The translations under genes and the position numbers were made by a program. A stretch of 64,000 bases of DNA from Marsupella aquatica (Eukaryota; Plantae; Marchantiophyta), in contig OZ316892.1 in the NCBI GenBank assembly GCA_973895155.1, positions 19,479,869 through 19,543,868 of the forward strand, written 5' to 3'. The notes beneath the pieces were generated by a model. That model saw nothing but the letters and a program-made list of their open reading frames with translations. It was not told the origin of the DNA and searched no databases. This document shows, in pieces, positions 13,252 through 38,615 of the stretch. The stretch's first letter is position 1. Each line of letters opens with the position of its first letter.

Positions 13252-16200
13252 AAGATTTATTCGACTTCGAGGTACCTGGAAGCACCAAGCACGAGAACGT
13301 ACAGTCTCCGTATTAATAGTCAGATCTATACCATCCTCTAGATCTCCTTATTTACCGAAAGCAGATTTCTTTCCTGCAATGAAATTTCTTCAACATGCAA
13401 AGATATGTACGTACTAATGGAGCCAGTCCTCTTCATTCTACAAATTCAGACCGCTAAGTATTCTATCCAACAACTAAATTAAAACCGTCAAACTACATGC
13501 ATCTCACTTCACTGGCAGAAGAAATATATACTGATTCAATTAATTGATAATTCACAAGCTAGAAGTAAGAGGAATGTAGGTTTTCAAATGGGTTTGAAGA
13601 AGTACATACAGAGAGTTTGATGAAGATCAAAGAAACCAACAAGAACCTTGTGGTGTGGTGTAGGACCAGAAGCTACGCAGGAACTAGAATTACGGAGATC
13701 GAGATTGTCTATAACAGGACTGTAGAGGAGTAGTCCACCGAAAAAGTGCCAAAACTCCTCCCGAATTAGAATCACAAAGCTAGAGGCGGAGACTGTCTAT
13801 AACAGTCAGGACTGTACTCCAAACAAAAAAGTGGAACTGGAATGCGAGATAAAGTTTCTCAGGAGCACGCAATGAGCTCTCAACTCAAAGTCCAAAGATG
13901 AATACGCAGGATGACTTATTGCAATGGACACATAAGGTGAACATAGAGAGGCAGCTGTGAGATAGAAGAATGAAGTAGAATGGAGGCAGAGTGCTTCTTA
14001 TAATGTACCCTGGCGCGCAGCAGCTGAAGTGCATGAGATATTAATGATGAAAGGGATGTGGCATTGACAATAGACAAGTTTCTAGTCTCCCCAAAAAAGT
14101 TTGACAGACCGAGGACTTGCTTGATGAAATAGTACTGACTAAAGACACGTTTCTCAGACTGAGCCAGAGTCCAACGAAGTGGTGCAACTTGGTGTCACTG
14201 ACTAAGCACTTACCTACATCTTCAATTGCTATTTCCCGACATAGTTTACAACCTACATTTGTTTGGGGAATAAATCTAGTTTGCATAATTAAGAGACAAT
14301 TCTGAAGATTTTGACTGGACCACCAGAAGTTATAATATTAAGTCCTATCAAATTTGAAAACGCTTAGAGATTGCGTTGTGTTCGCTGTTTAATTAAGGCA
14401 GCAACATGTTTCCCTGAGCCCCCCTTTCCTGTAGCAGGAGTCTACAGAGTTAGAGAGCTTAAAGCGGTGCTTTGCTCCAATTAATTAATTAATGTACAAT
14501 AAAATGGGAGAACAGCTGGGCATTCCAATTTTAGAATTTTTGGAGTAAGGAGTATGCATGAATGATGTAAAGGTGGACTCTGCTCCGAGATGTTGAGTTT
14601 GTATTATCAATTTCCGATGCCTTGGCCTTCTTTTCATTGGAAGATGGGTTAAAAATGGTTGTGGTTTGTGTCACTTAGAATTGTAAGTTGCATTGTTTGA
14701 CATGAGCACCCTCCAATATTGTTACTAGCTTCCAAAATTTCAGAAGCTAGTCATTAGGTGAGCTTGCTAAACATACCCCTCATGTAATGACTTCACCTAT
14801 TCTTCCAGCGGATGCCTTTCTGAGACATTATATATATGATCGAGCAGGATTTAAGGCAACAGGTGCGACCACAACACCTAGCTTCTTTGATAATTTTCTC
14901 TCTCAAAATGATATCGTGCGTTTTTGCTTTTACTGTTGTTTTGTTTAAGCTCTTTCTTAAACATGTCTCAGAACATTGGGTCGATCCAGTGCTTTTTCCT
15001 CTCCCAGAATGTCTTGTGCCTTTGCTTTTATTGCAGCTATCATTGTTGCGCTCATTTGATCTAAAACATGCCCCAGATTATTGAGTCGCAGTTCTGAGAT
15101 TCGTTCTCTCGAGCAAATTAGTTGGATTTTCTGCCTCTCTACGACATTTGGATCGATGTGTGATTGAGCTTGTTCCCCAAGCTTTGTGGAGTCCCCATTT
15201 TCAGGTACGTCCCATAGGCTCTGGTATAAGTTTTGCTGAATTGTAACGTGCTATCAGTAGGTTGGTGTGGCAAAAGTTGAGCACTAGACGAGATCCAAGG
15301 AGGATTCGGAATTGACAATTCCCTCACGTACTTCATTTGAAGAGATGGTTTCGAAAATGTGATGGTTGCACGTAGAAGCAATTACCCAGGAAGGCCTGAG
15401 TATGGTCGAGCTCTCTACTGCCCACCCGAATAACAGGTTTTACTGGCGAACTTGTTCAAGCAAATTTGGGAAGACACATATCTTTCTCTACCGCCAACCC
15501 GAACAAATAGTGTTGTACTCGATCGATCACGATAAAGTTAGCTAAGGCAAATATTTTCCCTAGCCTCACTTGTTTTCTTTATTAATAATTAATCATTCTT
15601 GGCTCAATGCTCACGTGTAATTGTGGTGGCGTGTTCTCATACCAATAGTGTTGTCTTGTCAACTAAGGTTGGCATTGAAGAAGCCTTCTCACTGGTTGGG
15701 TTGTTGTGGAACTGGTTGTGGAAGTGTGTCAGTTAGTAAATGTACTTATCGTTGCAGCTGGGTGTTGTTGGGGAAGGTTGGCAGTAAACGTTGCTGTAGT
15801 TGCATGCAGCTGGGTATTCTTAGACCGAGGTGACACAATGATCGACTAGAATGAATGCAAGTGGTGGAGGAAAATAACAAATGGTGAGGTGAATATGCAC
15901 AATGACTAGATTGAATGCAATTGGCTGGGCGGGAACTATCATTAATTTGAAAAACATTGTTTGGTTAGAGAGGCTACCGCAAGTTTCTTTGTGCATTTAA
16001 TGCTCAAAAAAGACAATTAACACTCACCTAATTTGATAACATGATAAGCATAGCTAAGAATCATTTCTGTACTATTTTCATTACATTAAATTAAAAATAA
16101 TTAGCATATATTTGATACTAAAACACGGTGAATCTTAATCATAAAGAACTTGCGGCTAAACCTGGGGATGATGAAATGGATAACAAATACTCAGGGCCAA

Positions 16201-18480
16201 ACTCTCACTTCAAAGCTAGCGGAAAATATTAATACTCGCAGTGTACATTTAGTTGCTCATGATGGTGTTCCTTCTTCGATGCCACCATATTGACACACTA
16301 GGACACTAGAAGTAATGCAACTTTCTTCTCAGTTTGCACAGATCGAAAATTTGAGAACATCAACTCTTTATGTCCGTACAGTGTACTTCAGAGGTCTCAG
16401 AAAGAGATGGGTATCACCCATTACTCGGCGAGGTAGACAAATCTATTTCTGAGTATTCATGGTCTGCTTACCTGAACAATGGTTTACTGTATACCATGTG
16501 GAAACGCTCCTATGTAATCACTCTCTAAAAAAGGAATAGTAAACTATTGACATGCAACGAGCACTAAATCATGTGATGACAAGTGACATTTTTAAAATTG
16601 TTACCCTTTACTTCCTTGCTACTTCTAAGTACTTCCCTACAATAAATAAAACCGCACATATGATGTCAACATTTGTGGAAGTGACCCACAGGGCAACAAG
16701 GCAAAAAGTTTTATTGCTCACATGTTTAATATCAGTTTCGTCCACCTAAACTATCAGAACACCAATATACTCTTCACAAAATTAGTGACTAATCTGATCA
16801 TGTATGTATGAATGGAGACAACAAATTTAAAAGACTCAAGAGTGATGAAGACTTTCTTTCAGACTGAGTGTATATATTTTAGTTCTGAGCTATCTAGCTT
16901 TATTATATAGGTGATTGAAATGGATCCAATTGGACAATAAATCTAGAGTGGAAGGACTGAATGGGGCCAGCTTTTCCGTTTATTTCTACCGTTGAATAAT
17001 ATATATTGTTCAGACAAATTTTTGTGCTGAATAAGTATCTGCACCCTCTAGGACAGACGTTCATCTTTCGAGTGATGGGCTGAGAAGGTTAACCATGGTT
17101 TGAGAGCGTGATACCAGCAGATATAAAGTAATTAATATCTCACACATAGACATAGCTCAGGAGCCCATTGCACTGTGAGCTGGTTGTAACGAGTTTGACA
17201 GTAGTACTCAAACTCATACTTTGAACCCAAACAGCTGCGTAGGTTTGAGGCAGGATTGCAAGGTTTTAGGCGAGAATTCCTCCTCCAAATACATGGAAGA
17301 TCAGTCTAGGTTTTGTTCTACTTTATCCAATCTGTTGAAAGCAGCGCGCCGGATCGAGGTGCACACAACACTATCAAATTTCTAGAGACTGGGCGCGTCC
17401 TTCCACCCCTGGCCCCGCTTATAAAATAAACAAAACATACTTCCAATGGGTATAAAATATCAATTTTAAAATAATATTATAACATGGGTTCTAACCAACA
17501 AGGTACATATATACCTCCAATGTTGATTAAAATAAATGAAGTTTTTTTTTAATGTGACTGTCCCAAAGTTGTTCAATTGTAGGGCCATGAAAATACCCAA
17601 TGACTCGCGTCACCCCATTGATTGGACACGTGTTCAACACGTACCAGTGGATTAGGGTGTACTGGATTTGGGGGAATAGTGACCAAAGAGTGTCATGTTC
17701 CCCCTCGCCCCTCCTACTTTGTAAGAGCCATCCGTGGAAGATACCCTAGATTGGAGGACCAGGATTATATGTGAGTGGGTCCAAGGGGCTGGCAAGACAA
17801 GGGGAGACAGTGCTAGTCAGGAGACGGGGACTCTAGCAGGCAAGATCTACAGGAGGGGTCTCCTGAGAGGTCCCAGCTGGGGCCCCACTTTTTCACTTTC
17901 TTTCGGGCTTTCTTGTGAGTTCTTCATCTTTTGCAAAGCTTGCGAGATCTTGGGCCAGGGTTTGGGCGAAAGTGTTTGACGTTGGGGCCAGGGTTTGGGC
18001 AAAACTGTTTGACATTGGGCTTTCTCAACAATCTGGGCAGACTGCGAGCTGGGGCCGGAGTTGGGTCAGGATTGCAAGCTGGGCAGGGATCTAGGGTGAG
18101 TAATTTTTATAGCAAATGAAAGGTATTTTAAATTCCAACATATGTCTGATTATAATAACATAGGCAGGTTTTATAAAGGACTGAAAATTCTTTTTAGAAC
18201 AAACAGTGTAAATTTTAATGTTCCTCCAAAATATATCCCTTGGGGGCCTTCAGTTACATGTATGTTTCATTACATTTCCTTTAGTGAGGGCCCAGGCTCT
18301 TCCACCAAACCTAAAATCTATTGTCTTTACTTACCCAATTGATCTTCAAATTAATTAAGCAATTAATTATCAAGATGCACATGCACATCCATATCACCAA
18401 AAAAATTCTTATATGTAATAGTATCACTACATAGACGTAGCAACAAAATACCAAAATGCAGGGAATTCACTAGTAGAAAA

Positions 18481-19200
18481 CAATGTATTTTATGACCGAA
18501 ACAATGACTATTAATCAGGTCTTTTTAACAAAACAATGACGCAATTGTTCTCGTCTTTCCAGACACGTCACAACGGACATTTTGGTCACGGTCCTTTTGG
18601 ACAAATGACGCTAAAAACATGTGGTCATTTCATACTATCCTAAATGACCATTTTTATGATATGGTCATAAATGTTGAACGGTCCAAAATGACGACACAAA
18701 TCACCATCGACGGTCAATTGTCGTTGACCGTCGATGGTCCCCGTACCCAATCACACAACGACACGTGGCAATAAAAAAACAAATAACATTGGTCATTTTG
18801 GACTTGTCCAAACTGACGTACATTATATAACAAATCAAATAGTGACACGTGGTTCAAAGAGGATTCACCATTTGGCAATATATTTGGGTCATTTTGGACG
18901 TGTCCAAAATGACTATAGTATAAACAAGTCATATTGAGACACGTGGTTCAATTGGGAGAAGACACGTAAAGATACACATTAGTCATTAATGACATGTCTT
19001 GAATGACATAAAGTGAGTCATAGTGGACTTGTTTATAATGACCATGAGAAAGGTCATTGTATATGTCATTCTTTGAATCATTTAGTCTATGTCTTTAATG
19101 ACCAGAGTTGAGTCATATTGGTCACAAAGATAGTTGTGAATAATGACCATTACATCAGTCATTCTAGCCAGTCATTTAGTCATTCAAGCCAGTCATTCAG
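18481..19200. repeat. Left subterminal region with dense ATGAC/GTCAT motifs (putative TnpA-binding sites)
   Basis: Many AATGAC/GTCATT copies in both orientations, mirrored at ~34800-35750. Confidence 0.8.
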
Positions 19201-19551
19201 ACGAAGTATTCAATGATTTGGAGAAATTCAAATTTAAGTGATCATGATAGATAAAACTTGATGTCAATCAAAAATCATACATTACAAAGCCATTCAATAG
19301 AGTTGCTAAATGAAAACTTAAAGAAACATTCGATATATATCACAAATCCAATTGATATTCATACAAGATACCTTCATAAGTCTCACGGTAAATATTGAAC
19401 TCAATGCAAATTTATGAAACAAAATTACATTGACATCAATAATATTAGATTGTCAATTGTTACAACCTGACATACCAATCACTCTGCATGTTTATAGAAA
19501 AACAGAGTTGTCATTCTATCATGTCTATTGTTTCTTGATAGAGTGCTATTT

Positions 19552-22388
19552 CTATTGCTTCTTAAGCAATCTAGAGTTCCATAGGGCATTCATCCCTTTC
19601 ACATCAGATAATTTAGACTGGTTCTCCCCTGAATTGGCAAATGGCAATGCCACATCTACAAACACTTCAATCACACGCACTCGCAAGAAAGGGCTTTCAA
19701 AATCTGCACAATGAAACTTATCTTCTCCTGGCAGCCCTGTCACCTCACCTTTTGCCACTATCATGGAATTGTCCACAACGCTCTTCATCTTCACCAAATC
19801 TCCTCTTGCAAACTGTGAACAACACATTTTGTTAAAAATGCAATAAACAGAAATTGAAAGATAGAAGAACACTCAAATCAAACACACATTTACCTTTGCA
19901 ACGGGGTTAGGAGACTGCATTGGTTTCTTCTGTGCAGGTGATGCATTTGCTGAGGATCCTTTCTTCCTTTTCTTCTTTCCCTTTCTAGTTGATGGAGTGT
20001 CATCCTGTTCACTTGGAATGGGAGTTTCTTTTGGCAACTCAGATGATTCTGGGGTTACATCTGGTGTCAACTGAGTCGACTTATCCTCTGGCAACTGAAA
20101 GGCATCTGAAATGGCTTCTTTGGGCAACTTAGATGGCAAAAGGTTCACTTCCAATTCAGTTTGCTTTAGAGTACTGTTAGCTGTGTCAGTTGGTCTTCCC
20201 TGCGACACAGGAGGCTCCCCTAAAGATGCTGTCATAAAACACACACAAAAGAAATGCATAAACAAACATGTATACACCAGCAACATATAATCACACTAAA
20301 AACATGCAAGAACATTATAAACATGCAATGACATATACACATCACAATAATTACATTGAATGGACAGTGTATACATGATAGAGAATTTTACCTTCATTAT
20401 CGCCTGAAAAAGTAAGAGATCGCTTTCTACTACCTTGTTTGGTAGTTGTAGTCAACTTACTGTGACTAGGCACAACTATTGGAACTTGTGCATTACTGGG
20501 GTGATGTGCCATCCACGTAGTCATCATGTTTGTCAACTCCCTCACAGTGCCTTTCAACTCAGCGACATCCAATTTCACAGCCCCAATGGTAGTGATCTCT
20601 TCTTTTGAATGTGGGGTCTGTAAATGAACCACAAACCAACACAACAGTCTCACTGTCAAACTTACAAACGACACAACACTGGCTCTGTCAAATGGAGAAT
20701 GATGTACAAATCAAATTGGTATGACAATACTCACAGCTGATCCATGTCTGTTTCCTTGCCCCAGTAAGCTAGCACTTTTACCCTCCCCACTTGCCAATGA
20801 TGGGCTCACCTTTGCTCCCACAAAACTACCAGTCTGACCTTCTGCACTTGCCAATGATGGGCTCATTGTCACCTTTGGCAATGAACCCTGACTACCATGG
20901 TTTTCTTTCAGGTCAGATATACCTGGGCTTGATCCCCTCTTCTGCTTCTGTTCAAACACACAATGAATGAGAAATCACAGAGTTTGTTTTCATCAAGATT
21001 CACAAACAAGACAGAATTGATAGTGAAAATGATAGACAATTTACCATTCTCTTTGCTGCTGCAGCATGCCCTCCCCTTCCAAAGTGAGAGGTATCTTGCA
21101 CTCGTGCTCTTTTATCAGTCATCTGTTTACTCAAAGATATCAATGCTGGACTGGTAAAATGAGATACCAAAGCTGCCCATTTCTTTGGATCAACACCAGA
21201 TGGCCCAGGTTTGGTTGGATCCTCATTGCAAACTTTCTTCCAATAAACATGCATTTTATGGCGCTCTCTCTTCAATATGCCACGACAATGACTCTGGAAT
21301 TTGGTGTTAATAAATTCCCCACCCACATACTCCCACTCAGCTGCCATGTTATTCCACACTGTGGTTGTATGAACTTGTGGATGATCAGTCCATTTTGGCT
21401 TTGATACATCAAAGACTCTGAGTACGTTGCCATGAAGTTCCTCCAACCAGTATTGTTTGTTGCCATCAGAATCATCAATATCATTGTCATAAATCTGCAT
21501 TTCACAGACAATGTCAGATCATAACTCTGGAATTTATGCAGAGTCCAGGTTTTATACACACAACAACAGAGAGGATCAGATTTGTCTAAATCTACAAACA
21601 AGTACAATACTCACTTTAATGTGTTTGGGCACCTCTCCGCAATCCCTTCGTTGTTTGGCAGTATTATCAAACTGCTTCTTAGCATGCCTTCGTTCCCTGC
21701 GCATCTCAGAGGCCCCTCCTGCAATGCACACACATGCATTCAATCAAAAAATATGTACATGATTGAAAAGTTGAGCAAATGTACTTGCATATGCATGACG
21801 AGCAGATTGTGTATTACCTGAAGATCCTCTGGAATGTAGTACATCAGATTGACCTGATCTGCCTTCAGATGCTGATGGAACCACTAAACAAACACACAAC
21901 ACCAAAGCACTTCAATTAATTTCATTTCCAAGTAGAATATCAACTTCCAAACACACCTGAAAAGTAGAACAGTACAATCCACTCACTTTCATATAAGAGT
22001 CCAGTGTCTGGGTCTTTCCAACATCTCACTAGCCCACCTCCACCAGGCCCAGTCTTCTTAGGACCACAATTTTGTTTCTGTACCTACATCATGGACAACG
22101 TAAGCATATCAACATATAATTTGAAAAAGGGACAAGGATCCCTTCCTATTAGGATGATGAAGTTCAAGCATTACCTGTTGTGCACTCTCTGGTTCTGACC
22201 CACCAATGTCAGAATCCTCAGTGTCATACTCAGAAGGAGAACCATAGCCATCATCACCAAACTCTGCCATGTTCACCTTGGTAACTTCTGATAGTCTAGA
22301 GCTCCTCCTCTTTGGCAATGTTTCAGTTGAAGTACCTTTCACCAAAGCAGGCTTTCCTCTCTCTCGTTGTACATGTGTGGTTGGGCCT
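19552..22388 (-). CDS. TnpA-like (Ptta/En/Spm plus C-terminal Tnp1-like domain) multi-exon gene; start not determined
   Basis: Exon ~21045-21497 has PSGVDPKKWAALVSHFTS...S...KR.....HFGRGG (Transposase_24-like). The last exon ~19552-19812 has VAKGEV...RVRVIEV..DVALPF...LSDVKGMNALW (Transposase_23-like). Low-complexity exons with GT-AG borders lie in between; exon limits are approximate. Confidence 0.75.
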
Positions 22389-22817
22389 CTAAGGAACAAA
22401 GCAATCATCAACATACACCAATGCAGATCAAACATACATGCAAAATGAATCTACAACACCGTAACACTAGTACTTATGTACAGGATCCATACTAGTATGA
22501 GACCAATCTGGAATATGAAAACAGAACATGAACCTGACAACTCCATCTACTGAATCAAATTTGCAATAGACATATCAACACACACATCAGCTTGCAGTCT
22601 GGCCCCAGTCCTAGATCACGCATAATTCTGACATTATGCTCTATGTTCCGATTTCGGGCCTCCTCATAAGGATTCACAGAATGTGACAACCCTTGCAATC
22701 TTCCTTTCACAGGCTGCATTCACCAACTGCACAAATGGGTAAACCATTAGTCTGATTTCATAAATAGTCCATACATGTAGTCCATCTATGGACTTCACAC
22801 ACCTAGCTAAAACCTAT

Positions 22818-25800
22818 TCACTGCTTAGGCCTGCCCTTTCTTGCAGATCCCTCTGCATCTCTGCCTCGTTTGGGACCAGTACTTGGTCCTGGATTTTCTC
22901 TGGACCTACAGGCCTTAGCCAATTCGATGTGTAATTTGGCATTGTTTTCCATTGTAGCATGGAAATCAACGTCTGTGTAATCACCTAACACCCTTGTGGA
23001 CCTGGATTCTTTGTGGAGGATTGTTCTCCATGCTATCCCCTTCTCATTGGGGTGGAAGAAAACCTGCTCCACTTGCTTTGGGAAAACGTAATCCATTTTC
23101 TTGGACACACCCAGTTCTCTATGGAAATTCACCTGCCAAAGACCAGACTTGGTATACCTCATACTGGCAGAGGATTTAGGAGTCCATGATGGATCTGCCC
23201 ATTTCCCTTTGAAAAGAATCACCTCTTTCCTCAAGCTGCCATAATTCAGTACCAAGATATCTGTCAAGGCCCCTACATACTGTACAGATTCTTCTATGGT
23301 TGCACCAGACCTGTCCACTCGCTTCTCAGTGAATGTAGAAGCCATCCCAGAATCAAAAGTGCTGAAAGCACCAGAATCACAATCACTCAAACACCCCAAG
23401 GATGGAATAGTCCTCCAATGGTGCCCATAGGCTCTACATGCCCTATACAGACGTGCCTTCAAACTAGGTGGTGTGGAGTATGCAGATAGTAATGACCGCT
23501 CAGACTCTTTCTCAAAATTATGGGTATTGACTAATGTTTGAAACCATTCCCTGAAAGGTGGCAATTCTTGGCAGTCTACGGGAAATTCCACTGGTTTTCT
23601 TCGATTGGCAGGCTTCCTCATCCACTCCTTCCGGAAATCCACTCTTCGTTTGGTAACAGTCTCATTGGTAGCATCATATATCCTGCATGGCAACAACAAC
23701 ACTGAAGACATTAGTGCACGATCCACCATGAATATACAAACACAATGGGGCAACATAATTATGATCCATATGCCTAAGGATAGGAGAGTTTCTAGGGTTT
23801 ATGTACCTGTACCATGGAGCCACTGTCTCTTCATTCTCTAATATATAATGATGCATGGCCATCATTTCAGACCAATCCAAAGTTATCGCCTTTGCAGCCC
23901 CTTCCAAAACAATGCCTGCAACGCCAGCATCCTCCTCCAACTCCCAGGTTCGTTTTCCCTCTCCCTTTGCATCAATCATGTATTCAAAAAGAAATCCCAA
24001 AGACTCATCTAATACATAGCCTTCAGCCATAGAAGCCTCTGGACGTGCCTTGTTTCGTACATAACCCTTCAATACCTTCAGGTTCCTCTCTATTGGGTAC
24101 ATCCATCTGCCTGTAACTGGGCCACACAAGTCTAATTCCTCCACTAGGTGAATCATTAAATGGGTCATGACATCAAAGAAGCTTGGTGGAAAATGGATTT
24201 CCAAAATGCAGAGAGTGAATGCAACATCCATCATCAAATTCTCATACATTGAAGGGTCCCACACCTTCGTACAGATCTGGCGATAGATATTGCTCACCCC
24301 AGCTATGGCCAAGCGAACCCCTTCATCAAGTAATCCCATTGTTGCCAGAGGGAGAATCTGTTGCATGAGTTGGTGGAAATCATGTGATTTCAACCCAGAG
24401 AGTTTCTTGGATTTTGTAACACACTTTGCCAAAGAACTTGAAAAACTAGTGGGCCCTTTCAAGGTCAATAAAACCTCCAAGAACCTTGTTCTTTCCTTCT
24501 TGCTCAGGCAATATGGGGCTGGGGGCATCAACAATTTGTCATCCTTACGCTTGGGAGCTGGATTGGGTACAAGCCATAGGTGTTGGCGCACCTGTAAGAG
24601 CTTCATGTCTTCTCTCACAGAAGGAGTGTCCTTGGTCCCAATGATAGTGTGCACAATGTTGTGTGCAAGATTCTTCTCACAGTGCATGGGATCTAGACAA
24701 TGGTTAATGAGTAGTTTCTGCAGTGGACACACAATTCAGAAATTAGGGCATTGAATACAACTTTTGGCATCACTGGGCAGTAGTTTGTGCAGTGGACACA
24801 ATTCAGAAATTAGTGCATTTAATACAACAATTACAAAATCTGGGCTACAGGAAGTATATGAAGAGAATATATTTCAAAGTCATATGAAGAGATTGCAGAA
24901 ATTCATTGTAGTAGTATGGAGTCTTACATTCCAATAGGGCAACTTGTACAGACCAGTAGCCCTCTTCACTCCATGCACCTTTATGGGGCATTTCTCATCC
25001 TCAACCTTGGTTCCTCCCTTCTTCAAATATTCTGTTGTCTCGTCTCCCCACTTCTTTCTATCAGAGCTTGTCATTCTACACGGTGCAGGTCGACTCTCAA
25101 TTGCACCATCAAAGTATTGTGCACTATCTGGTCTACGAAAAAGATGCCTTGCTGCTAACCATCGACGGTGGCCACTGTACTCTAATTTCTGCAAGTGCTT
25201 AGAACCACGTGCCACACATTCTGGCCCACAGATGACACATCCTTTGTATCCAGAGTGTTGTTGTCCAGATATTAAACCATATGCAGGGTAATCATTGATT
25301 GTCCACAATAGCACAGCCCTAAGGTTGAAGTGTTGAGACAATCCTGGGCGTGGCAATTTGTCAAAGCAGGGCACTCCTTTCTTCCACAACAGCTCCAACT
25401 CCTCATAGAATGGGCCCAATATTATGTCTAGTTGTTCCTCTGTTACTGAATCAGGTCCTGGAATCAACATAGCTAGCATGACAAAGAACTTCTTGGTGGT
25501 AAGCCAAGGAGGTAAATTGTAATTCAACAACAGTATTGGCCAGGTAGACCAAGCTGTGGAATTATTCCCAAAGGGATTCACCCCATCAAGTGCCAACCCA
25601 AATCGCACATTCCTTGGTTCAGCTGCAAATTCCCGATCAATATTTGTATCCACATGCTTCCAAGCCTTTGAATCTGCTGCGTGCCAAACCATGTTGTCTG
25701 TGCTTCTATTCTCATGATGCCAAGTCATGAGTTTAGATGTACCAGCAGTGGCATACAATCTCTTCAACCTGGGAATTATAGGGAAATACCACACTACCTT

Positions 25801-26787
25801 CCTTGCCTGTAATGAATTCCCCACTCTCTTCATCTTGGGCTGCTGACACACTGAACAGTTTTCTAACTTGGCATTCTCACCCCTAAAGAGCATACAACCT
25901 TTCTCACAGACAGGGATTCTCTCATAATCCAAGCCAAGCTTTCTCAATAGCTGCTTTGCAGCATATAAGTTCTTGGGCAGATTATGCTCTGTAGGCATAC
26001 CATGCTCCCCCATCAAAGACAACAATGCATTCACTCCTTTGTTTGAGAATCCATGGCCATGACAGATGTTCAGCAGAAGCAACATGAATGACACAACATC
26101 TATTTTGCTGCCTGGGAACAAAGGTTGCATTGCTGCATCTAAAGATAACTGTGCAGGATCAGTCTCCACAGGAGTTTTGGAGGTTTCAAGGGGGTTTACA
26201 GGATGGGCACCTCCTTCACTCTCATCATCCCCAAGTACAAAATCCAAGTCAAAACGGTCCTGATCATCTAGCTCATGCTCAGGGGATTCTTCACTGGTTC
26301 TCAGCAACGTTTCTTCCAGTAGAGCCCTGATATGTTCTTCGACATCTATAGTTCGATGTTCTTGAACATCCACAGTTGGATACTCTGGAACATCTACAAA
26401 TAAATGTTCTTCAACATCTACAGTTGGCTGTTGTGCACAGGTTGCCTGCTGAAGGTTTGCTACCCTCAATGCCTCAGGGCCATGTTGTGACATGTAGTCA
26501 GCACCCCACTCTTCATCAGAAGAGTCCTGTCCCTCTCCCACCCACACTCGACATGCAGGGTACCGACCATGTTTAATAAGGTGCAGTCTAGCAGTATTCC
26601 GATTAGTCCTATAATTCCCTTTGCAGTTCACACAAGGGCAGTACATCTTATGGTCCCCACTCTTGTGGCAGGCCTTCTGTTCTCAAACCCACAAAGCATC
26701 ATCACGATGTTGTACTCTAGCTGGATGGAAGAGCAGCAACTTTGGAGTTCTACCCACACCTAACGTATTCTGTGGCAATTGTGCCAT
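22818..26787 (-). CDS. TnpD-like CACTA transposase, 3 exons (24928-26787, 23807-24717, 22818-23682), with in-frame TGA at codon 35
   Basis: Motifs YCPCVNC, RNVRFGLALDGVNPF...STWP...NYNLPPW, LRAVLLWTINDYPAYG, LDPMHCEKN, GLKSHDFH, FPPSFFDVMTHLMIHL...GPV..RWMYPIER, NKARPEASMAEGY, YVFPKQVEQVFF. GT-AG joins keep the frame (3636 nt). Stop at 26683-26685; next in-frame ATG is 26646. Confidence 0.93.
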
Positions 26788-27383: not shown

Positions 27384-28043
27384 TCAAATCCAAGATATGT
27401 GGCTCCTAGCAGGAGTGCCTAGTGTAGGGTCAATGTCATGGTCAGGACAGTAAAACATCCCCTTCTTGGGCTGCCCATGCGCTGAGTGATCCCAAATTGT
27501 TCGATCATGGGCAAATCCCCTCTGCTGGATAAACAGCAGGCAGTCTTTGTGCCATGCCTTAGGACACCTCATGCACTGAACCAAAAAGCCATTAGCCCCA
27601 TCATTGGGCCCCTGTCCACAAGTAAGACAAATATGGAGTCCACATGATGCTGTGCCAGGAACCAAACACTGCCAACAGTAAAACCGGGCACAGAGAGAGT
27701 CTGGACATTTTCTTACCTCTTCACCAATTTTTCCAGACACATGGCACTTAAAGCAAGAATGTTCCTCATTCTTGCAATCAACACAAAGCCATTCTCCAAC
27801 ATGGCCATCAGCGAGGGATATAGTTGGGCATAGCCATTGCTGACCCAAAGGACAGGAAACATTCTTATGGAAATGTCGGTGGCAAGGCCCATCACAAACA
27901 ATGAGATCCCCTCCCTCATCACAAATCGCACATACATGTGGACTATTCTGGTTAATCTCAATGTCTGAATATAAGGACAATTGAGGTGCTTGAGAGGATT
28001 CACCTCTGCAACGATTCATGGCCTTCTGCTTATTGCGAGCCAT
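27384..28043 (-). CDS. Transposon-borne EDM2-like triple PHD-finger protein (219 aa)
   Basis: VCAICDEGGDLIVCDGPCHRHFH...WLCVDCKNEEHSCFKC...C....CARFY...CGLHICLTC...CMRCPKAWHKDCL...RTIWD...FYCPDHDIDPTLGTPARSHI matches the order and spacing of the EDM2 PHD region as recalled, including its C-terminal YC..H.ID..L.TP.R.H motif. Uninterrupted ORF, with a splice acceptor (GTGCAG) a few nt upstream of the ATG. Confidence 0.85.
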   Translation of the reverse strand: MARNKQKAMNRCRGESSQAPQLSLYSDIEINQNSPHVCAICDEGGDLIVCDGPCHRHFHKNVSCPLGQQWLCPTISLADGHVGEWLCVDCKNEEHSCFKCHVSGKIGEEVRKCPDSLCARFYCWQCLVPGTASCGLHICLTCGQGPNDGANGFLVQCMRCPKAWHKDCLLFIQQRGFAHDRTIWDHSAHGQPKKGMFYCPDHDIDPTLGTPARSHISWI

Positions 28044-30329
28044 GGTCCTGCACACTCAGACCCTACATCAGATTGTGAAACAAGAAGGAATAACAGGGTG
28101 CAGTATGACACAAAAGAATGAGGGTGCAGCATAAAATATGACATGTAACCACAAGGGTGCAACATAAACCAATGTTTTATAGATGGCAAAGCATTTAGGA
28201 CTGAGCAACGCAAATAACCTTGGCCTAGATGATTGGAAGCAATCACAAATATTGCAACCTGTATGCCTTTGCTTGCTGTACAGCAGTGCTCACTCACCCT
28301 GCCTTTTTAAAATCTGTAAGGGCAACACAGAACAAATAGCAATTGAGTTTCAGCAAAGCATTCATTTGGCTCTCAAGTTTTAAAATGGACAGAGCAAACA
28401 CAACAATGTGCACAACAAAGCACAGAGAGCAACAAAACTCAAGCAAACTGGGACTCAGGCAAGAGATACGAATTTTAGCAGCGAAATCAAATCAAGATTC
28501 GGACCTGTGAGTTCAACATGCAGTGCTCACTCACCCTGCCCTTTTTTAAATCTGTAAAAATCAAGTTTTATTGTGTGCCTTCTACATCTTAAGCTGCTGC
28601 ACACATCTGTTACAGAACCATAAGTTGCTTTACTCTCAACAAGCTGCTGGTCCACCCACTTTTTCAAAAGCTGCACCGTACTCTATCTTCGTGCACAAAT
28701 GACTATACCGGGCTGCTGTCAGAGACCCTTACGAAGAATTTAAAATTGACCAAGCTGATTTTAGTTTAGTTTCGTCCAGTTTGCAGACCAAAGGAAATCA
28801 TGTGGCTGTATTCATGGAGTTGTATTCATTGCTGTGTATGGATGTTGTGTGAACATCAGACAGTTAGCTGTAAATTACCATAGTTGAAGAGCAAGGCTTG
28901 TACAAAAGCCACTAAGGATTTCTCTGAGGTGGCACAGCAGTTGGCAAACCACACACGAAACTCTGAAACTTTTTGGCGACAAAATTCTACAGAGTCGCTG
29001 CTGGAATCAAGTGAGGATTCACCATACATGCCTGCACTTCTCTTCAGTAAAAAAAAGAGAAAAGAAAAGGGCTATGATACAGAGGGATGTCAAAAGAAGA
29101 GTAAGGAAACCAATTCATTGAGGAACATAGACAGACTAAGGAAAACATCATACAATGGAAAACTAAGGACTACATTGTAATAATAAGAGATCAAGCTCAC
29201 CTTGCACCACAAAGATTGTCAGACGACAACAAGACAACAAACTGAACTGAACATAGCAGACAAATCCAACAAGTAGCAATCAGAAATCAACAGCAGACAG
29301 ACAAAGGACAACTTGGTCAGAACTCGGGCACTTGATTCAGTTGTGGTAAATAGCCGTTCAGGTTCTGGACAAGCAAGAGCAATATGTGAGCAAACTCCAG
29401 AAAAATCATCTCTTGAGATTGAGGAGAAAGGCATTTCCCAGCCAGCTTACTTATGTCTTGAAAAATGTATCGGACATCGTGGACGCTGGGCCTCAGCTGC
29501 TGGCCGCAAGGGAAGATTTTGCCAAAACAAACAATAAAGCTCGAAGATAGTTAAATTTCTTAGGTCTTTCTAAATGGGGACTGAATTAGCAATTAGAACC
29601 AGTAAACCCTGATCTTGGGCAGGCAGAGAGAGAAGAGTCCGCGCCTAATACTTATGTCTACCCGAATTTTACTGGGACATATGAGCATTGGGATGCCATT
29701 GCAAAGCAGAATTTTGTAGCAGTGGAAGGAATCAACATAGATAGCAGTGGAAGGTCGCAGTGGAGCTAGCATGGTACAGGGAAGGAAATGCAGACATTGT
29801 GCGAGAAAGTGCAATGGCTAGTTCTATGGGATTTCCTTCTCCAATCCATGACAGTGCCGACGACACGCACAACTGCTACAATCAGTGCGCGTCCAGGATG
29901 CTCCATCGCATCACGTCAGGGAACTCAACATTCTAGACATTCGAAAACTGCATTCACATTTCTCTGCAAAGGGAACTCAACATTGTAGACATTCAAAAAC
30001 TGGTGCAAAACTCAGGCACTTAGAGAGAGAGGGACAGAGAGAGAGCGAGAAAGAGAGAGCAAATAGTCTCTTAGCAATCGGAGCTTCTCTGTCATTGCCA
30101 TAAGCATACTAGCAGACACTAAGCAACAGAACAAGAAGGCAACATTGGATTCATGGACTGACAGCACATTGGTAGCACATTGGCAAAAGCAAAGCAAAAA
30201 TGCAGAATGAACAAATGGCCAGAAGGGGAAGAAGCGCAAAATTGCACAACTGACCTTCTCGCACCTCAGCCCAAACTCGCTCCCACAGATATAAGTTCTC
30301 GCAGCTCCTTGATGGAACCTCCTGTAGGT

Positions 30330-30601
30330 TCTCGCCGATTGCAACTCCTCACCCACAGCTTCTTGCCGATTGTAGCTTGCTGCTGATTGCAACTCGTCGC
30401 TGATTTGCAGCTCGTCCTCCGCTCCTCACCCGCAGCTTATCGCCGATTGTAGGTCGTCCTCCACTCCTCGCCCGCAGCTTATCGCCGATTGTAGGTCGTC
30501 CTCCGCTCCTCACCCGCAGCTTATCGCCGATTGCAGCTCATCCTCCGCTCCTCACCCGCAGCTTATCGCCGATTGCAGCTCATCCTCCGCTCCTCACCCG
30601 C
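30330..30601. repeat. GC/CpG-rich 42-bp tandem repeat (~5 good units plus degenerate ones) inside the CACTA
   Basis: Unit TCCTCCGCTCCTCACCCGCAGCTTATCGCCGATTG(T/C)AG(G/C)TC(G/A); CGCCGATT recurs at 30441, 30483, 30525, 30567. Confidence 0.95.
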
Positions 30602-31171
30602 AACAATGACAAATGTAAAGAAGCTATTGCCTTGACCCTGCAATCGGGCACTCCAAAGCCCGAATGTCCTCCAAAGCGCAGGGTCCTCCAAAGAAGCTCC
30701 CAAGTCCTACCGAGGTGCTCCGCCGACCGCGCGCAACAAGCTCAAAAACAATTGTAGCCTGAATGGCTTCGGGTCGGAGCTCCTCCTCTAAACCTTGCAA
30801 ATGGTCACTAAAACAATGCCACGTCCAACGCTTCACTCAAAAAATGCCTCACCCAATGCTTGCCCGAACAATGCCTCGCCCAACGCTTCGAAGGGTGTCG
30901 AAGCTTGGTGGAATGGAGCACAACGCTGCGCAACCCTAAGCCCTTGCAATGTGCACACAAAGGCATGCCAAGAAATGAGCACATCGAGCGTTGCCCTCTT
31001 GATGTTTTTTCAGGAAAAAGGGCTCCTGTTGGTACGCAAGAACACTTAGCGGGAAAAACCTAATGCTGGACCCCAAAACCCCGTAAAGGTAAGGTATTCT
31101 GTTGGATGGGGATGGTGGATATTGTGGGTCATTAATTAGGGTTATATTCTGACAATATCTCTCACATGTCT

Positions 31172-31357
31172 GGACCCCCCATAAGGCCCTAGGGAAGTTG
31201 AGACTAGGTTAATAACAATGTAAACCCCCCCCCCATAAGGCCCTAGGGAAATACCGACTATAGAGGTTAATAACAAGGTCCGGACGCCCCCATAAGGCCC
31301 TAAGTAGGGAAGGCAAGGTTAATAACTCATAATGTCACGACCCCCCCCATAAGGTCA
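31172..31357. repeat. Four degenerate ~55-60-bp repeats with C-runs
   Basis: C(n)ATAAGGCCCTAGGGAA...GGTTAATAAC repeated. Confidence 0.8.
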
Positions 31358-32269
31358 TGGCTGTTTGTGTAGGTGCCAACAAGAATGTTAAGGACCAATG
31401 TTATATATAAAAAATGATGCTAGCGATATAAAAGGTCCGATATATGCCCGCGATATAAACCCATAACCCGCATGCATGAACACCATTTTGGACTACCTTA
31501 TTGTCTCACCATATGATAGTGATACTCATCCAAATATTAGCATTTAATAGCTCTCCACTCCTGACTCAATTGAGAGAAACCCTCATTCATGACTCAAGCA
31601 CAATTATAGGGTCCCTTACATGCTACATGACCACTACATATGAGGCTATGTTGTGTAAGAGTTTTTGAGAGCATTACACCAAAGCATTAATAAGTGAGCC
31701 TTCCCATGACTATATGACCTCCAATATGCCAACATTAATGGCTTCCAATATGACAGCGTGAGTGACCCCACGTTTAGTCCTCAGATTGAAGCACCATTTA
31801 ATTCACAAATGACCCAATGAACTCCCTTGTACCTCCAAAGAGAACCCCCCAATAGCCTTTGTAAAGACCACATTTCCATTTGGTACTTCTGACCTCTAGT
31901 ATGACAACCAAGATTACCCTAATTTGAGGTGTTTCCATTAATGACACACCATGAGGGACCTCTCTAATGACCACATATGCAGTCAATTGCTCCAAATGAC
32001 CTCTAACTAACTACCAAAATGACCCTTATTGTAGTCATTGACATTAATGACACACATTATGTGAAAATGACCCAATGAAGAGTATACTACCTCTCGGAGT
32101 GCCCCTTTACAATTCCTTTGGAATTTAATAGAATATATCCAAAATCCAAATATCGGCACAAACATGACATAGTTATATAGAAGGACATAGTCTTCCACTA
32201 GTATTGCACTATATACCTCTTGGAGAGACAAAAACAATTTTTGTATGCATGCCTTAGGATGGTATGCAT

Positions 32270-34790
32270 GCATGGTGACACTTTTGGCAAATCACTCCAA
32301 AGTTGTATGACTTGGGAGTGATTTCCCCAAGGTTGCATCATCCCTTAAGTAATTGCAAAAACATGGCTCCAAAGTGCTCATGGTGCAACTAGTGGTTGGA
32401 GAATAGTACGGTGGGTATAGTACCCCGCACCTTGTGGAGAGGTTGCCACCTTCATGTAGAGCCCCATGGCACACTAGGGCCACCTTAAGCTCCTAGACCT
32501 AAAAGGGTCATTTCTGATGGTACGTAATGACACCATGAGGGACCTCTATAATGACCCCATATGGAGTCATTTGGCACAAATGACTTCCAAAAGGACTGCC
32601 AAAATGACCCTTACTGCAGTCTTTGGCATTAATGACACACTATTCCTCCAAAATGACCCAATGAAGATTACAACACCTACTCACAATGCCCCGACACTAT
32701 TCATATGCAAAATGGAGTATTCCCCATCCAAACACCGGCACAAACATGACACAATTACATCACAAGATGACAACCTTCCATTGGTGTTGCGCTACTTCTT
32801 GGAGAGACAAAAAATGGCTCCATTTGCGCTTGGATACGGTGGTATGCATCCATGGTGACACTTTTGGCAAATCACTCCAAAGTTGTATGACTTGGGAGTG
32901 ATTTCCCCAAGGTGCATCATGCCTTAAGTAAATGCAAAAACATGTGTCCAAAGTGTTCATGGCACAACTAGTGGTTGGACGATGATGAGTATAGTGTCCC
33001 GCACCTAGTGGAGGGGGTTCTCACCTCTATGTGGGGCCCCATGGCACTCTAGGGCCCACCTCCAGCCCCTAGCCCCAAACTGGTCATTTGTGCTTCTGCT
33101 TAATGATTGCACAAGGGACCCCTCAAATGACCACAAATCCAGTCATTAGACTGATATGACTTTCCATATGACAGTTTTAATGACCCTACTTTTAGTCATT
33201 GATATTTATGACGGGCCATTGCTCACATATGACCCAATAAAGGCCCTAGTACCTCCAACTAAAGCCAGTTTTAGATTCCTTGCAAGATTGGAATATTCCT
33301 CTTCCCTATAGCCGCACCCACACCATACTGAGAAGCACGACTCCCCTGCCCATTCCATTGGTGCAGCACCACCTCTTGGAGAACCCAAAAACAACTTTTA
33401 TTTGCCTTTGTATGTGATGGTGTGCATGCATGGCAACACTTTTGGCAAATCACTCCAAAGTCGTACGACTTGGGAGTGATTTCCCCAAAGGTGCATCGTG
33501 CCTTAAGGAAACCCAAAAACATGTGTCCAAAGTGTTTATGTCGCAACTAGTGGTTGGACAATGATGAGTATAGTGTCCCGCACGCAGTGGAGGGGTTCTC
33601 ACCTCTATGTGGGGCCACATGGCACTCTAGGGCCCACCTCCAGCCCCTAGCCCCAAACTGGTCATTTGTGCTTTTCCTTAATGACTGCATAAGGGACCCC
33701 TCAAATGACCACAAATCCAGTCATTAGACTGATATGACTTTCCATATGACAGTTTTAATGACCCTGCTTTTAGTCATTGATATTTATGACGGGCCATTGC
33801 TCACATATGACCCAATAAAGGCCCTAGTACCTCCAACTAAAGCCAGTTTTAGATTCCTTGCAAGATTGGAATATTCCTCTTCCCTATAGCCGCACCCACA
33901 CCATACTGAGAAGCACGACTCCCCTGCCCATTCCATTGGTGCAGCACCACCTCTTGGAGAACCCAAAAACAACTTTTATTTGCCTTTGTATGTGATGGTG
34001 TGCATGCATGGCAACACTTTTGGCAAATCACTCCAAAGTCGTACGACTTGGGAGTGATTTCCCCAAAGGTGCATCGTGCCTTAAGGAAACCCAAAAACAT
34101 GTGTCCAAAGTGTTTATGTCGCAACTAGTGGTTGGACAATGATGAGTATAGTGTCCCGCACGCAGTGGAGGGGTTCTCACCTCTATGTGGGGCCCATGGC
34201 ACTCTAGGGCCCACCTCAAGCCCCTAGCCCCAAAATGGTCATTTGTGCTTTTCCTTAATGACTACATAAGGGACCCCTCAAATGACCACAAATCCAGTCA
34301 TTAGACTGATATGACTCTCCCTATGACAATTTTAATGACCCAACTTTTAGTCATTGGCATTTATGACGGGCCATTGCTCACATATGACCCAATAAAGGCC
34401 CTAGTACCTCCAAAGAGAGCCAGCTTTAGATTCCTTGCAAGGTTGGAATATTCCTCTTCCCTAAATCTGCACCCACACCATACCCTAAAAGCATGACTCC
34501 CCTGCCCATTCCATTGGGGCAGCACTACCTCTTGGAGAACCAAAAAACAACTTTTATTTGCCTTTGGATGTGATTGTATGCATGCATTTATTTGCAAATT
34601 AAAATATTCCCCGTCTAAACACCGGCACAAACATGACACAATTACAACAAAGCATGACAACCTTCCATTGGTATTGCCCTACTTCTTGGAGAGACAAAAA
34701 GGTTTCATTTGCCCCATGGATACGATAGTATGCGCGCATCTATATATGATGACACTTCTGGAAAATCACTCCAAAGGTGTATGACTCTAC
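32270..34790. repeat. ~578-bp tandem array inside the CACTA (4+ units, degenerate extension to ~31700)
   Basis: AAATCACTCCAAAG at 32289, 32869, 33447, 34025 and ~34763; identical spurious ORFs at 33206/33784 and 33271/33849. Confidence 0.95.
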
Positions 34791-34864
34791 AATTATGATA
34801 GGTGTCTGGAATGACTATTGAGTATTTTAATCTTCATATCTCTTGGGTTCTTTAATGACTCTAT

Positions 34865-35375
34865 AAGTAGTCATTTATGTAATAAGTCCATAATGACTGT
34901 ATGTTATTGTAAACATTGATATATGCTGATTTTTAGATTAACCCTATATTTAGTCATTTATGCAACAAGTCCATAAGGACAGTATGTTGTTGAAAACACC
35001 GATATATCCTAATTTCAAGATTGACTGTGGAGTTAGTCATTTATGAGAGAAGTCCATAATGACGGTATGTTCTTGTAAACACTGATATGTCCTAATTTCA
35101 AGATTGACCCTAGAGTTAGTCATTTATGGCAGAAGTCCATAATGACAATATGTTGTTGTAAACACTGATATATTCTCATTTTCAGATTGACCCTAAATTT
35201 TGTCATTTATGAGAGAAGTCCATAATGACGGTATGTTCTTGTAAACACTAATATGTCCTAATTTCAAGATTGACCCTAGAGTTAGTCATTTATGGCATAA
35301 GTCCATAATGACAATATGTTGTTGTAAACACTGATATATTCTCATTTTCAGATTGACCCTAAATTTTGTCATTTA
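34865..35375. repeat. 83-bp subterminal tandem repeat x6, with alternating variants (166-bp higher-order unit)
   Basis: AGTCCATAA at 34885, 34968, 35051, 35134, 35217, 35300; units 3/5 and 4/6 are near-identical. Confidence 0.93.
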
Positions 35376-35979
35376 ACACCGTTGGTTAAAATGACGATAA
35401 TACATTTTTTGTCATTTATCACCGTTGTCCAAAATGATGCAAATAGATTTTTGGTCATTTCAGTCATTGTCCAGAGTGACTATAATGTTGCTAAACACTG
35501 ATTTATCATTGTTGTTATTAATTGTGTCATTTAAGACATGTGTCTAAATTGACCATTTAGGGAAATTGGGTCATTTTGGTCGCATCAGTCATTATAGACA
35601 TTATACAAAATGACGAAAAAATTAACATTTTGTCATTTCAGTCTATTGGTCATTGTGGACAGTCATTCCCCCGTCATTCTTTTTGTGTCATTAAAACTTT
35701 TGGTCATTTATTCATCTCTGTCATTGGGTGATTGGTCATAAAGGGCCCTATTTTCTTCTAGTGAAGTTGCCCAGAAAGAATCTCAGTCCCAAAGTATATA
35801 ATGGCACATCTAGCTGTGATCAATTGCTAGCTAGTGAGTTTGTGACATTCTGTGTAACACTAGAAAATTGAAAACACTGCTAGGCTATTGGGGTTCATTC
35901 CCAGAGCCCTTGGGAAATCAGAGAGAAGTGGAAATTAAACCCTTGTCGTTACATACTGTTCACTCGATCTTTCCTGACC

Positions 35980-36303: not shown

Positions 36304-36740
36304 GTGTTATTCAACAGTTCACTAATAAAATACTGGGAGGTCGATCATAGGCAACAGATCCTTTGGATTAATTCTGCATGCACGGAATTGACCCAGATAG
36401 CTTAGAAATTAGTGCCTAAATGAACAAATAAGGTACAGTAGCTAGAGGATGTCAAACTTACATGGATGAGACCCAAAAGGGTTGGATGATCAACCTTGAC
36501 AAAAGCAGCATCCCAATGCTTTATTTCATCGTCGGTAGCAGAATTAGATTGCAGATGATATGTGCAATACTGGATCACCTTGATCAGTATCGTGCTGGGA
36601 ACATTCGGCAAGCAAATGATGTACTCGTCAGTGATCTCCACTGTCTCCATGACTAGTTTTGCGTCTTGCAGCACCACCAGGTCTACTTCAAATTTAACAT
36701 GGTCAGATGACCACAGCTGCACCTTTCTCTGGCTTGACAT
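35980..36740 (-). CDS. SKP1: SKP1-like protein (171 aa; exons 36462-36740, 35980-36216) with a hydrophobic C-terminal extension
   Basis: KVQLWSSDHVKFEVD, ICLPNVPSTILIKVIQYCTYH, WDAAFVKVDHPTLLGLIH|AGNYMNLRPLLDLVCQRAADLINGKSVEEIKSTFGI. The phase-0 GT-AG intron is at the usual plant SKP1 position. Confidence 0.93.
36255..36300. repeat. (AG)23 microsatellite in the SKP1-like intron
   Basis: Read directly from the sequence. Confidence 0.98.
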
Positions 36741-38615
36741 CTTGGTTCGTCTGGTGGTTGTGTCTGTATGTGAGCTTTCTCTCGGATAGAGTTGAGTTAC
36801 CTCTCTAGCCAGAATCTGTTTCGTGCTGGTCAGAAGAATTGCCAACGATCCACTTTCCCTGTTCAAAGATTTCCTCAGCTAGAGACTGCAAATGTATGTT
36901 GTAATGCTTGGCTAAACAGCTGCAATGTACAGTTGTCAGCATAAGGTATACACATCAATCTTTACTTCTTGAGATTCTGAGATGCATGTTCTACATGGCA
37001 CGATATAAGGTCACAATACGTACTTCTATCAACTGGTACGTCCAAAAACTAAGAAAATAGAAAAACATCACATACTGAGCTAGTGCAGCACGGGGAGAGA
37101 CCGGGTAGAGAGGACACCTGATGACAATTAAAGCGAAAAACCAACAGACTTAGCTTGATTCTCTGAAGGTGCCCGTTCTGTCGGTTACTTAGAAGACTCT
37201 CAACAAACGTTAATGTTCCCAACCTTTATAGGTTAAAGCGAAGCTTTTGTAGTCTTTAGTCAGCTAGGTATACTTAGATCTTTCTCATAAATGATTAAAG
37301 GCATTCAAGCTAGGTTGTTAGTCAGGTGCGTATTGATCAATGGTCATAAGTGAACAGAAAGCCAGTTGGACCCGGGGATGGATCCCGGGATAGGCAACTC
37401 TAGCTTGTATGATAGAAAAGGCCAGGGTCCAACCTCTTCAAGGAAATACACCTAACCGGCTGTCTACTGTGACATCTTCCCTCAGTCTTAGTTGTTACTG
37501 GACAGTGTCTAGTCTTGTTACTGGACAGTCTGTGTTAATTAAGGCATTCTGGCTTTTCACTTCTGGTGAAGCAAAAGCTCAGAACAAATTCGTTTGTCAC
37601 GGCTAAGTAGTCCTAAACACTTATCTCCAGATTGAAGGAGATATAAGCTATATATAATGTGCATACTGGCATGTTTGAAGTTGAAAAACTTGATCAAAAC
37701 CAAATTAAATGGCTTATTTTTTACAAGTGTACACAACCAAACCAGCCAGCATTATGAGATTTTTGTTAAATTTCTAAAAATATTCTTATAAAAATTACAA
37801 TAAGGATTTTTTTTAATCTTATGGGGCAGAAAACAAAACCAAAGTATATATAGATACGACTCAGAAAATTCAAAAAATGGGAAACCCAGGCTTTTTAAAC
37901 ATTCTTTTTTATTACAGCCCCCTGGCCCCCACTTTTAGGTAATAACTGTTCTACATGAGAACAATTCATTTACAACTAACCAACCTGCATCTCCTATTGT
38001 AAATATGACATATAAGGAACGGGACAAGTATTGTACTGTATTGAGTAATCAGTTTGTGTTAGATTTTCCACAGGGGGTCCCTAATAGGTAATGACACACA
38101 TCATCATATTAGTGGGTCAGGTATGTGTCAACACTTAATTGATACATATGACACATACTATATCCACTTTTATATATGGAGTATTTATTCAGTAATGATG
38201 GGTCTGTGGGTTTAATTCAGGGTCTGGCTTTACCATAGGGTTTATTGGGAGGTTTGGGGTTTGAGCCATTGGGACTTTGCAAGTGTAAATACAATGGGGC
38301 CAAACTTTGGCCAGTTGATCCAAGGGAGAGCACGTCTAGGCCCAACAGTGATTGATCCATGGTCTGCAAGCAGGTGATCTTCACCCTCAGGTGTGTTGCA
38401 AGGTGTTTCAATTCGCTTTGGGTCAAAGTCAGTTTGACCCAAAACCCCACCCAAACTGCTAGCTCCCATTTTGCCCCCTCATTTGGCTTCTGGTAGTTTT
38501 AGTGGTAGCTCTTTGTCTGTCTTGCTTGGTCCTCATTGGTCTGTCTTGCTTGGTCCTCGGGGTTCAACATTTCTCTCTCTAATTATGGTGCATGTTCCAA
38601 TGAAACATAATTAGA

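Follow-up and report, generated by a model that had tools for sequence, protein, structure and literature searches.

A three-finger PHD gene under selection in a multicopy CACTA transposon family: a candidate chromatin-acting accessory protein

Our data show that a CACTA transposon in the window, i.e. the whole 64,000-nucleotide stretch of Marsupella aquatica DNA that was analysed, carries a stand-alone gene for three linked PHD fingers, and that this gene is multicopy family cargo under purifying selection, not debris. With a probability of roughly 45%, we read it as a selected third gene of a multicopy CACTA family, encoding a chromatin-acting accessory protein that probably aids transcription under silencing. 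A sequence-only reading had placed an intronless ORF of 219 amino acids inside the terminal inverted repeats, on the TnpD strand and just upstream of TnpD, and this is where it lies, about 600 bp before TnpD. That the ORF consists of nothing but three linked PHD-like fingers and ends directly after a C-terminal motif is likewise borne out by translation, Pfam and alignment. Its parts, in window coordinates, are the following:

27384..28043, minus strand: stand-alone three-finger PHD ORF, intronless, 219 aa (translation, Pfam, ligand alignment)
28014..28040, minus strand: H3-tail-like N-terminus (residues 2-10), predicted disordered, pLDDT<50 (alignment, AlphaFold)
27774..27932, minus strand: finger 1 (C38-C90), with G45, L47, D51 and W85 of the H3-binding groove present and His36 where the K4-binding Asp is expected (alignment)
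27633..27755, minus strand: finger 2 (C97-H137), with a linker some 20 residues below EDM2-like length (alignment)
27438..27629, minus strand: finger 3 (C139-H202), followed by a C-terminal motif common to EDM2-like proteins (Pfam, alignment)

The minus-strand translation of 28043-27384 is open throughout, with the C-terminal end ...YCPDHDIDPTLGTPARSHISWI*, and ORFs of such length appeared in 0/500 shuffled versions of the surrounding 4.7-kb stretch. Only PHD-type (NSD-type) Pfam families match it: PHD_NSD (E=7e-8) and PHDvar_NSD (E=2e-7) are both past their cut-offs, and PHD and PHD-1st_NSD score below theirs. All 24 of the 24 Cys/His ligand positions of the three fingers can be aligned with those of EDM2-like proteins, a His being exchanged for Cys at one of them; the alignment also places a deletion of about 20 residues in finger 2. 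The shortened linker and the kept ligands described earlier both stand. AlphaFold predicts a folded three-finger unit (pLDDT 74-76); Foldseek with this model returned PHD-type fingers only, the best match being to PZP domains (E 2e-4), and the best hit of a VIA fold search was the PHDvC5HCH module of NSD2 (Z 6.6, rmsd 2.5, 75 aligned residues). A donor-like splice site at 27717 overlaps conserved coding residues and was set aside as probably due to chance.

The element around the ORF spans 17.3 kb between termini at 18468 and 35763, which match at 12/13 terminal bases and at 23/30 positions across the longer arm. Its features are:

18468..18497, plus strand: CACTA terminal inverted repeat, 3' end of the element (terminus match; read depth goes up here in 4/4 runs)
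18468..19300, no strand: subterminal repeat zone, AATGAC/GTCATT at 25 per kb, against <1 per kb inside the element and outside (motif count)
19552..22450, minus strand: multi-exon TnpA-like gene, approximate limits, downstream of TnpD (no Pfam match; Atlas lead)
22818..26787, minus strand: TnpD transposase, predicted exons 26787-24928, 24720-23809 and 23681-22818, 1211 codons (Pfam, exon prediction)
28298..28551, minus strand: two near-identical predicted spliced-leader micro-exons of 16-17 nt, 28551-28535 and 28313-28298 (canonical splice consensus match only)
29468..31468, no strand: CpG-rich stretch, observed/expected 0.62-0.77 versus 0.14-0.34 elsewhere in the element, with a 42-bp tandem array at 30397-30602 (CpG count)
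31939..34587, no strand: internal array whose units measure about 578 bp and each contain a near-palindrome of about 52 bp (repeat analysis)
34700..35763, no strand: subterminal repeat zone, 27 per kb, holding an 83-bp array at 34856-35375 (motif count)
35734..35763, minus strand: CACTA terminal inverted repeat, 5' end of the element (terminus match; flanking 3 bp unlike those of the other end)

CACTA...TAGTG termini with short inverted repeats, a TnpD gene, subterminal repeats and many copies together assign the element to CACTA/EnSpm, although a 3-bp target-site duplication, which also belongs to this class, is absent from the ends of the window copy. The flanks read ATT versus AAG, and this copy is therefore not a clean single insertion; two insertions may have combined in it, or one of its ends may be damaged. 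TnpD, with a likely ATG at 26787 on the strand of the PHD ORF, matches Transposase_21 (E=4e-65) and DUF4218, and more weakly DUF4216 and Transpos_assoc; in the window copy it is interrupted by a single in-frame stop at codon 35 of 1211 (26685-26683), and this copy is probably not autonomous. The TnpA-like gene has no Pfam match (0); Atlas points to Transposase_24, with a score of 0.92 and 32% of the cluster members, as a lead only. At the other end, the CpG-rich stretch likely represents the promoter and first exon, and predicted acceptor sites at 28062 and 28047, which are consensus matches only, lie right upstream of the ATG of the PHD ORF. The flanks of the element hold an F-box Kelch gene (12110-13347, minus strand), a Skp1 POZ fragment (36402-36878, minus) and a zinc-knuckle/RING ORF (41246-41809, minus). 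An old inverted duplication (14017-14649 and 42840-43497, 64% identity) has one arm on each side of the element, and two 2-kb direct repeats 39 kb apart (6212-8169 and 45322-47291, 97% identical) probably belong to another repeat family.

Evidence on other copies comes from public contigs of sequencing runs aligned to the element, in which depth is a rough guide and no true copy number. In run X1, one 1.2-kb contig covers 26947-28146, and thus the PHD ORF, at a depth of 701 with 6 differences, next to contigs at 800 for TnpD, 750 for TnpA and about 16 for the flank, i.e. ratios to the flank of 45, 51 and 48 for PHD, TnpD and TnpA, respectively; the 5' part of the element is shallower, with a ratio of 16. 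The best run may derive from the same source as the window. Depth steps up at the terminal repeat in all four runs compared with the element, and the PHD ORF is also found at depth in X2, X3, X5 and X6 (three organisms, four studies; X6 was compared over the ORF only), whereas X7, which covers 8/29 bins of the ORF, was left out.

Sequence variation among these copies is strongly skewed towards silent changes. Among the 40 best supported of 58 ORF variants, 23 are synonymous versus 11.3+/-2.7 expected if the same mutation types fell at random places (P about 1e-4). For the main X6 copy, assembled in contigs at a depth of 233-256, 20 of the 22 differences from the window ORF were classed: 12 are synonymous and 8 are replacements (pN/pS 0.19, P=2e-4), and none of the 8 replacements falls on a zinc ligand. 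What looks like a stop at codon 124 is none, since the two changes behind it lie within one X6 contig and together encode Gln. Damage is seen in some copies of low depth, namely C90Y, a 1-bp gap and gaps at the ORF start. CpG depletion in the PHD ORF (0.22) equals that of the transposase exons (0.20-0.25; 0.43 in the nearby F-box gene), which fits long residence in the element. The proposal that the ORF is no decaying captured fragment is therefore upheld, as are two of the checks suggested with it, presence as fixed cargo beyond a single copy and purifying selection: its X1 depth is on a par with that of the transposase, its ligands are conserved, and both the low pN/pS and the synonymous excess indicate purifying selection.

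The stand-alone relatives of the ORF are mostly 213-245 aa long, and most share the same terminal H-I-S-W motif. In 17 full-length relatives with a median identity of 46%, Cys or His occupies 403/408 ligand cells; the rows of this alignment are not independent. These relatives form one branch both in FastTree (support 99; 23 of 156 rows, with 15 fetched proteins excluded as partial or repeated) and in IQ-TREE (100/100; 17 of 47 chosen rows), where a stem of 1.8 changes per site separates them from EDM2. The transposon clade thus stands apart from host EDM2, as had been anticipated, and the proposed relationship to EDM2 holds as well, with 24 aligned ligand positions and EDM2-like proteins as next-best matches beyond the family (30-36% identity). 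The best named EDM2-like BLAST matches are from liverworts, but the tree does not group the clade with them. One protein of the first alignment, P0016, fell outside the clade in the tree and was dropped from later alignments. Several distant relatives are truncated, and none of the clade members looked up bears a name from an annotated genome; both observations would fit repeats. Ancient capture of the PHD cluster from an EDM2-like host gene is the likely origin.

Linkage to a transposon was observed in the close family. A metagenome scan yielded 15 loci without any transposase match; the sole family member among them, L001, is a 1.9-kb locus with an in-frame stop and no transposase that ends about where the transposase would begin. 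No family relatives were found among 35 candidates in viral contigs or 41 candidates in prokaryote genomes, and no fusion of the PHD module to a transposase among the fetched homologues (blastp, a homologue search without length limit, and one for longer proteins of 533-2000 aa). Short EDM2-like proteins also exist outside the clade. P0030 (Marchantia Mp4g03050, 280 aa), for whose gene id no literature was found, is PHD-only, sits on a long branch and has a similar basic motif upstream of its fingers. The grass proteins P0105 (Eleusine coracana), P0106 and P0129 (320-390 aa) are without the methyltransferase-like part and are possibly an independent short form; P0106 and P0129 start M-A-R-K-K. 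In another EDM2-like clade (P0022, P0023, P0025, P0171, P0032, P0064), whose named members are liverwort proteins, the chain ends just past the PHD cluster without the C-terminal domain.

Which ligands the fingers might accept can be approached by comparison with EDM2 and with well-studied histone readers. EDM2 is described as combining atypical PHD fingers with other domains and as having ASI1 and AIPP1 as partners (PMC7529245, PMC7472560, PMC3632883, PMC10241880), and its domains, as listed in PMC7529245 and from Pfam matches of the homologues, include an N-terminal RFD-like and a C-terminal methyltransferase-like (ELP) domain. The ORF shares the atypical PHD cluster and the post-finger C-terminal motif with EDM2-like proteins (Arabidopsis EDM2; Mp1g03210, Mp2g00350, Mp4g03050). 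Unlike EDM2, however, it consists of fingers only, lacking both the RFD-like and the ELP domain, and it differs further in its shortened finger 2 linker, its own long-stem clade, its residence in a transposon and its H3-like start. Where EDM2-like proteins have an acidic patch ahead of finger 1, the family has a helix of its own and S-P-H: Asp or Glu occurs in 0/27 family members within six positions N-terminal to the first Cys, whereas 125/133 other homologues have an acidic residue at -4 to -2. Aligned to AIRE PHD1, whose H3-contact residues, including the Asp that holds H3K4, are taken from PMC2261226, the family keeps the H3-pairing strand and the R2-holding Asp (G45, L47 and D51 in 26/27 members each; W85 in 24/28 rows). 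A peptide groove is therefore likely to be retained in the fingers. The K4-holding Asp of AIRE is replaced by His in 24/27 members, and the aromatic-cage Trp is absent from finger 1, with His or Gln at position 57. Without the acidic residues and the cage Trp, finger 1 would be neither a textbook K4me0 nor a textbook K4me3 reader. Among solved structures, the ORF is closest in sequence to the NSD2/NSD3 finger cluster, not to a known H3K9me2 reader.

The sequence-only reading overlooked that the ORF begins with M-A-R-N-K, which lines up with the start of histone H3. The H3 residue is the commonest one at 5/9 tail positions (A1 in 17/25 rows, R2 in 24/25, K4 in 22/25, A7 in 16/25 and K9 in 13/25), and the linker that follows is gapped and conserved to at most 36%. 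Departures from H3 are Pro at position 3 in 9/25 rows and Lys instead of Thr at position 6 in 16/25, and R-P-K is the commonest variant. Counted without an alignment, R-x-K occurs in 22/26 members, as against [AST]-R-x-K at a like distance in 6/113 other homologues. M-A-R-N-K falls within the published definition of H3 N-terminal mimics, iM-Z-R-X-K (iM-[AGSCTPV]-R-X-K), for which 48 of 20,996 human proteins are reported (PMC8166343). This strict motif is present in 13/32 family rows, two of which have it at an internal Met, and 7 further rows have two extra residues ahead of it; since some bryophyte-type EDM2 proteins start M-A-R, the motif may in part be inherited. In AlphaFold models of the protein, either complete or lacking its initial Met, residues 1-21/22 stayed below pLDDT 50 and no docking of the tail was seen, a point on which models from 17-25 sequences are uninformative. 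We consider it possible, at somewhat less than even odds, that the tail is an H3 mimic; the strict motif in 13/32 rows and the extra leading residues in 7 would fit a nuclear-localization or DNA-binding patch as well. Like the H3TMs described in PMC8166343, the ORF begins iM-A-R-x-K in a predicted disordered tail, but in contrast to these and to viral histone mimics (PMC6028506) the candidate mimic, proposed from sequence, sits on a PHD protein in a plant transposon. Separately, fourteen contigs of the viral collection (L016-L029) contain histone H3 genes, several of them changed near K18-K27.

Overall, the conservation of the PHD gene suggests that the transposon likely copes with host silencing by means of it. 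The gene would be expressed via a spliced leader that begins in the CpG-rich 5' region, and the fingers would dock on H3 tails or partner proteins via their A1/R2 groove, which is retained, and would differ from EDM2 in specificity. After removal of Met, the H3-like tail could lure host H3K4 writers or readers and thereby bring activating factors to the element or divert silencing ones. The PHD protein would thus be a small chromatin adapter that helps transcription of the element even as host silencing marks are placed on it, and it would complement TnpA. In the account of bioRxiv 10.64898/2026.08.24.746577, Arabidopsis TnpA, the known CACTA-encoded anti-silencer, switches Spm elements on but leaves their H3K9 methylation in place, so that there would be scope for a further factor working on histones. 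TnpA is a helix-turn-helix DNA binder of transposase origin, whereas the PHD gene, likely of host origin, is carried by the element as a third gene besides the TnpA-like one. The more far-reaching version, i.e. that an old plant CACTA lineage turned the histone-reading module of EDM2, the host's heterochromatin read-through factor, into a two-sided anti-silencer with docking PHD fingers and an H3 mimic that baits H3K4 writers or readers, appears rather doubtful to us.

Selection on the PHD gene demonstrates its importance, not its role, and does not separate anti-silencing from targeting. The main rival is thus an insertion-targeting subunit, in which the PHD protein would bind TnpD or TnpA and tether the transposition complex to marked chromatin. 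The PHD finger of RAG2 tethers RAG1 to histone-marked chromatin. RAG1 is placed in the same transposase clade as CACTA (PMC12730594), and chromatin readers of transposons, e.g. the chromodomains of some Gypsy integrases, have been linked with targeted insertion (PMC12477816). Targeting would account equally for the selection and cargo evidence, and the location of the PHD gene, just ahead of TnpD and on its strand, would suit it; however, the 0 transposase fusions among the fetched homologues speak against it, and it leaves the H3-like tail unexplained, so that we regard it as rather unlikely. Less probable still is a cofactor acting apart from histones, with the fingers as a protein- or DNA-binding scaffold of the transposition complex and the basic N-terminus as a nuclear-localization or AT-hook-like patch. 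The loss of the acidic residues ahead of finger 1, the prevalence of R-P-K among the tail variants and the similar internal basic motif in P0030 (Mp4g03050), outside the clade, are all compatible with such a cofactor, but it would not predict the retained A1/R2 groove residues, a motif placed right after Met in 13/32 rows, H3 residues as the commonest at 5/9 positions or the rarity of [AST]-R-x-K in other homologues (6/113).

The sequence-only reading had itself favoured a narrower role, i.e. EDM2-like reading of H3K9me2 that either masks the mark or recruits ASI1-AIPP1-EDM2 for full-length transcripts, and this we consider very unlikely. It draws on the EDM2-like nature of the closest homologues outside the family (30-36% identity), on the reported binding of H3K9me2 by the EDM2 fingers and promotion of distal polyadenylation by the ASI1-AIPP1-EDM2 complex (PMC7472560), on the long introns in the element, and on the H3K9 methylation described as staying at active Spm elements. 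With a stem of 1.8 changes per site, the acidic residues lost and the other EDM2 domains missing, however, the H3K9me2 specificity of EDM2 cannot be taken for granted in the ORF: given the 0/27 acidic residues and the His in place of the K4-binding Asp, the label of an EDM2-type H3K9me2 reader is not supported, and, given the missing RFD-like and methyltransferase-like parts, neither is recruitment of the ASI1-AIPP1-EDM2 pathway. That the ORF is a passenger, i.e. a captured host gene kept for host benefit or drifting in the element, is highly improbable in our view, since damaged copies and truncated distant relatives do occur but are outweighed by a pN/pS of 0.19 between element copies, a depth equal to that of the transposase, ligands kept across 46% identity and 0 clade members, among those looked up, named from an annotated genome.

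A chromatin-acting accessory protein would place the family among transposons with related cargo. VANC of the VANDAL (MuDR) elements is, like the PHD gene, a DNA-transposon accessory gene from a host chromatin regulator (MAIN-like, PMC13547354), and VANDAL elements are described as having, like our CACTA element, tandem repeats in their non-coding parts; VANC differs in superfamily and fold, and is reported to bind DNA motifs and to cause methylation loss at VANDAL elements (PMC5735166). Host-type chromatin modules kept by transposons, as the PHD ORF is, are also known from TET/JBP in fungal EnSpm and other elements and SET in HarbingerS (PMC12730594) and from chromo and Tudor domains in Gypsy elements (PMC12477816), but these are other domains in other lineages, and no PHD or EDM2 module is named in the relevant parts of these sources. 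The term 'PHD' has 0 occurrences in the main texts of PMC13547354, PMC13317346, PMC12730594, PMC12477816 and bioRxiv 10.64898/2026.08.24.746577; the 962 Repbase Spm proteins surveyed in the last of these could include PHD or EDM2 cargo. In the openly accessible literature searched we found no report of PHD or EDM2 cargo in CACTA elements, in line with the earlier remark that no description of such cargo was known. Transposon-borne chromatin factors are thus a known kind, of which an EDM2-derived PHD gene in CACTA elements is, as far as this literature goes, a new variety.

The known plant transposon anti-silencers, VANC and TnpA, act via DNA motifs, and the PHD gene would be a second, histone-based route. 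If this is true, a transposon would be re-using a host factor whose very purpose is coping with transposons, and if the two-sided version also holds, histone mimicry, known from viruses, would be used by a plant DNA transposon. If the PHD protein directs insertion instead, it would be a separable targeting subunit of a cut-and-paste transposon and would inform our understanding of insertion bias.
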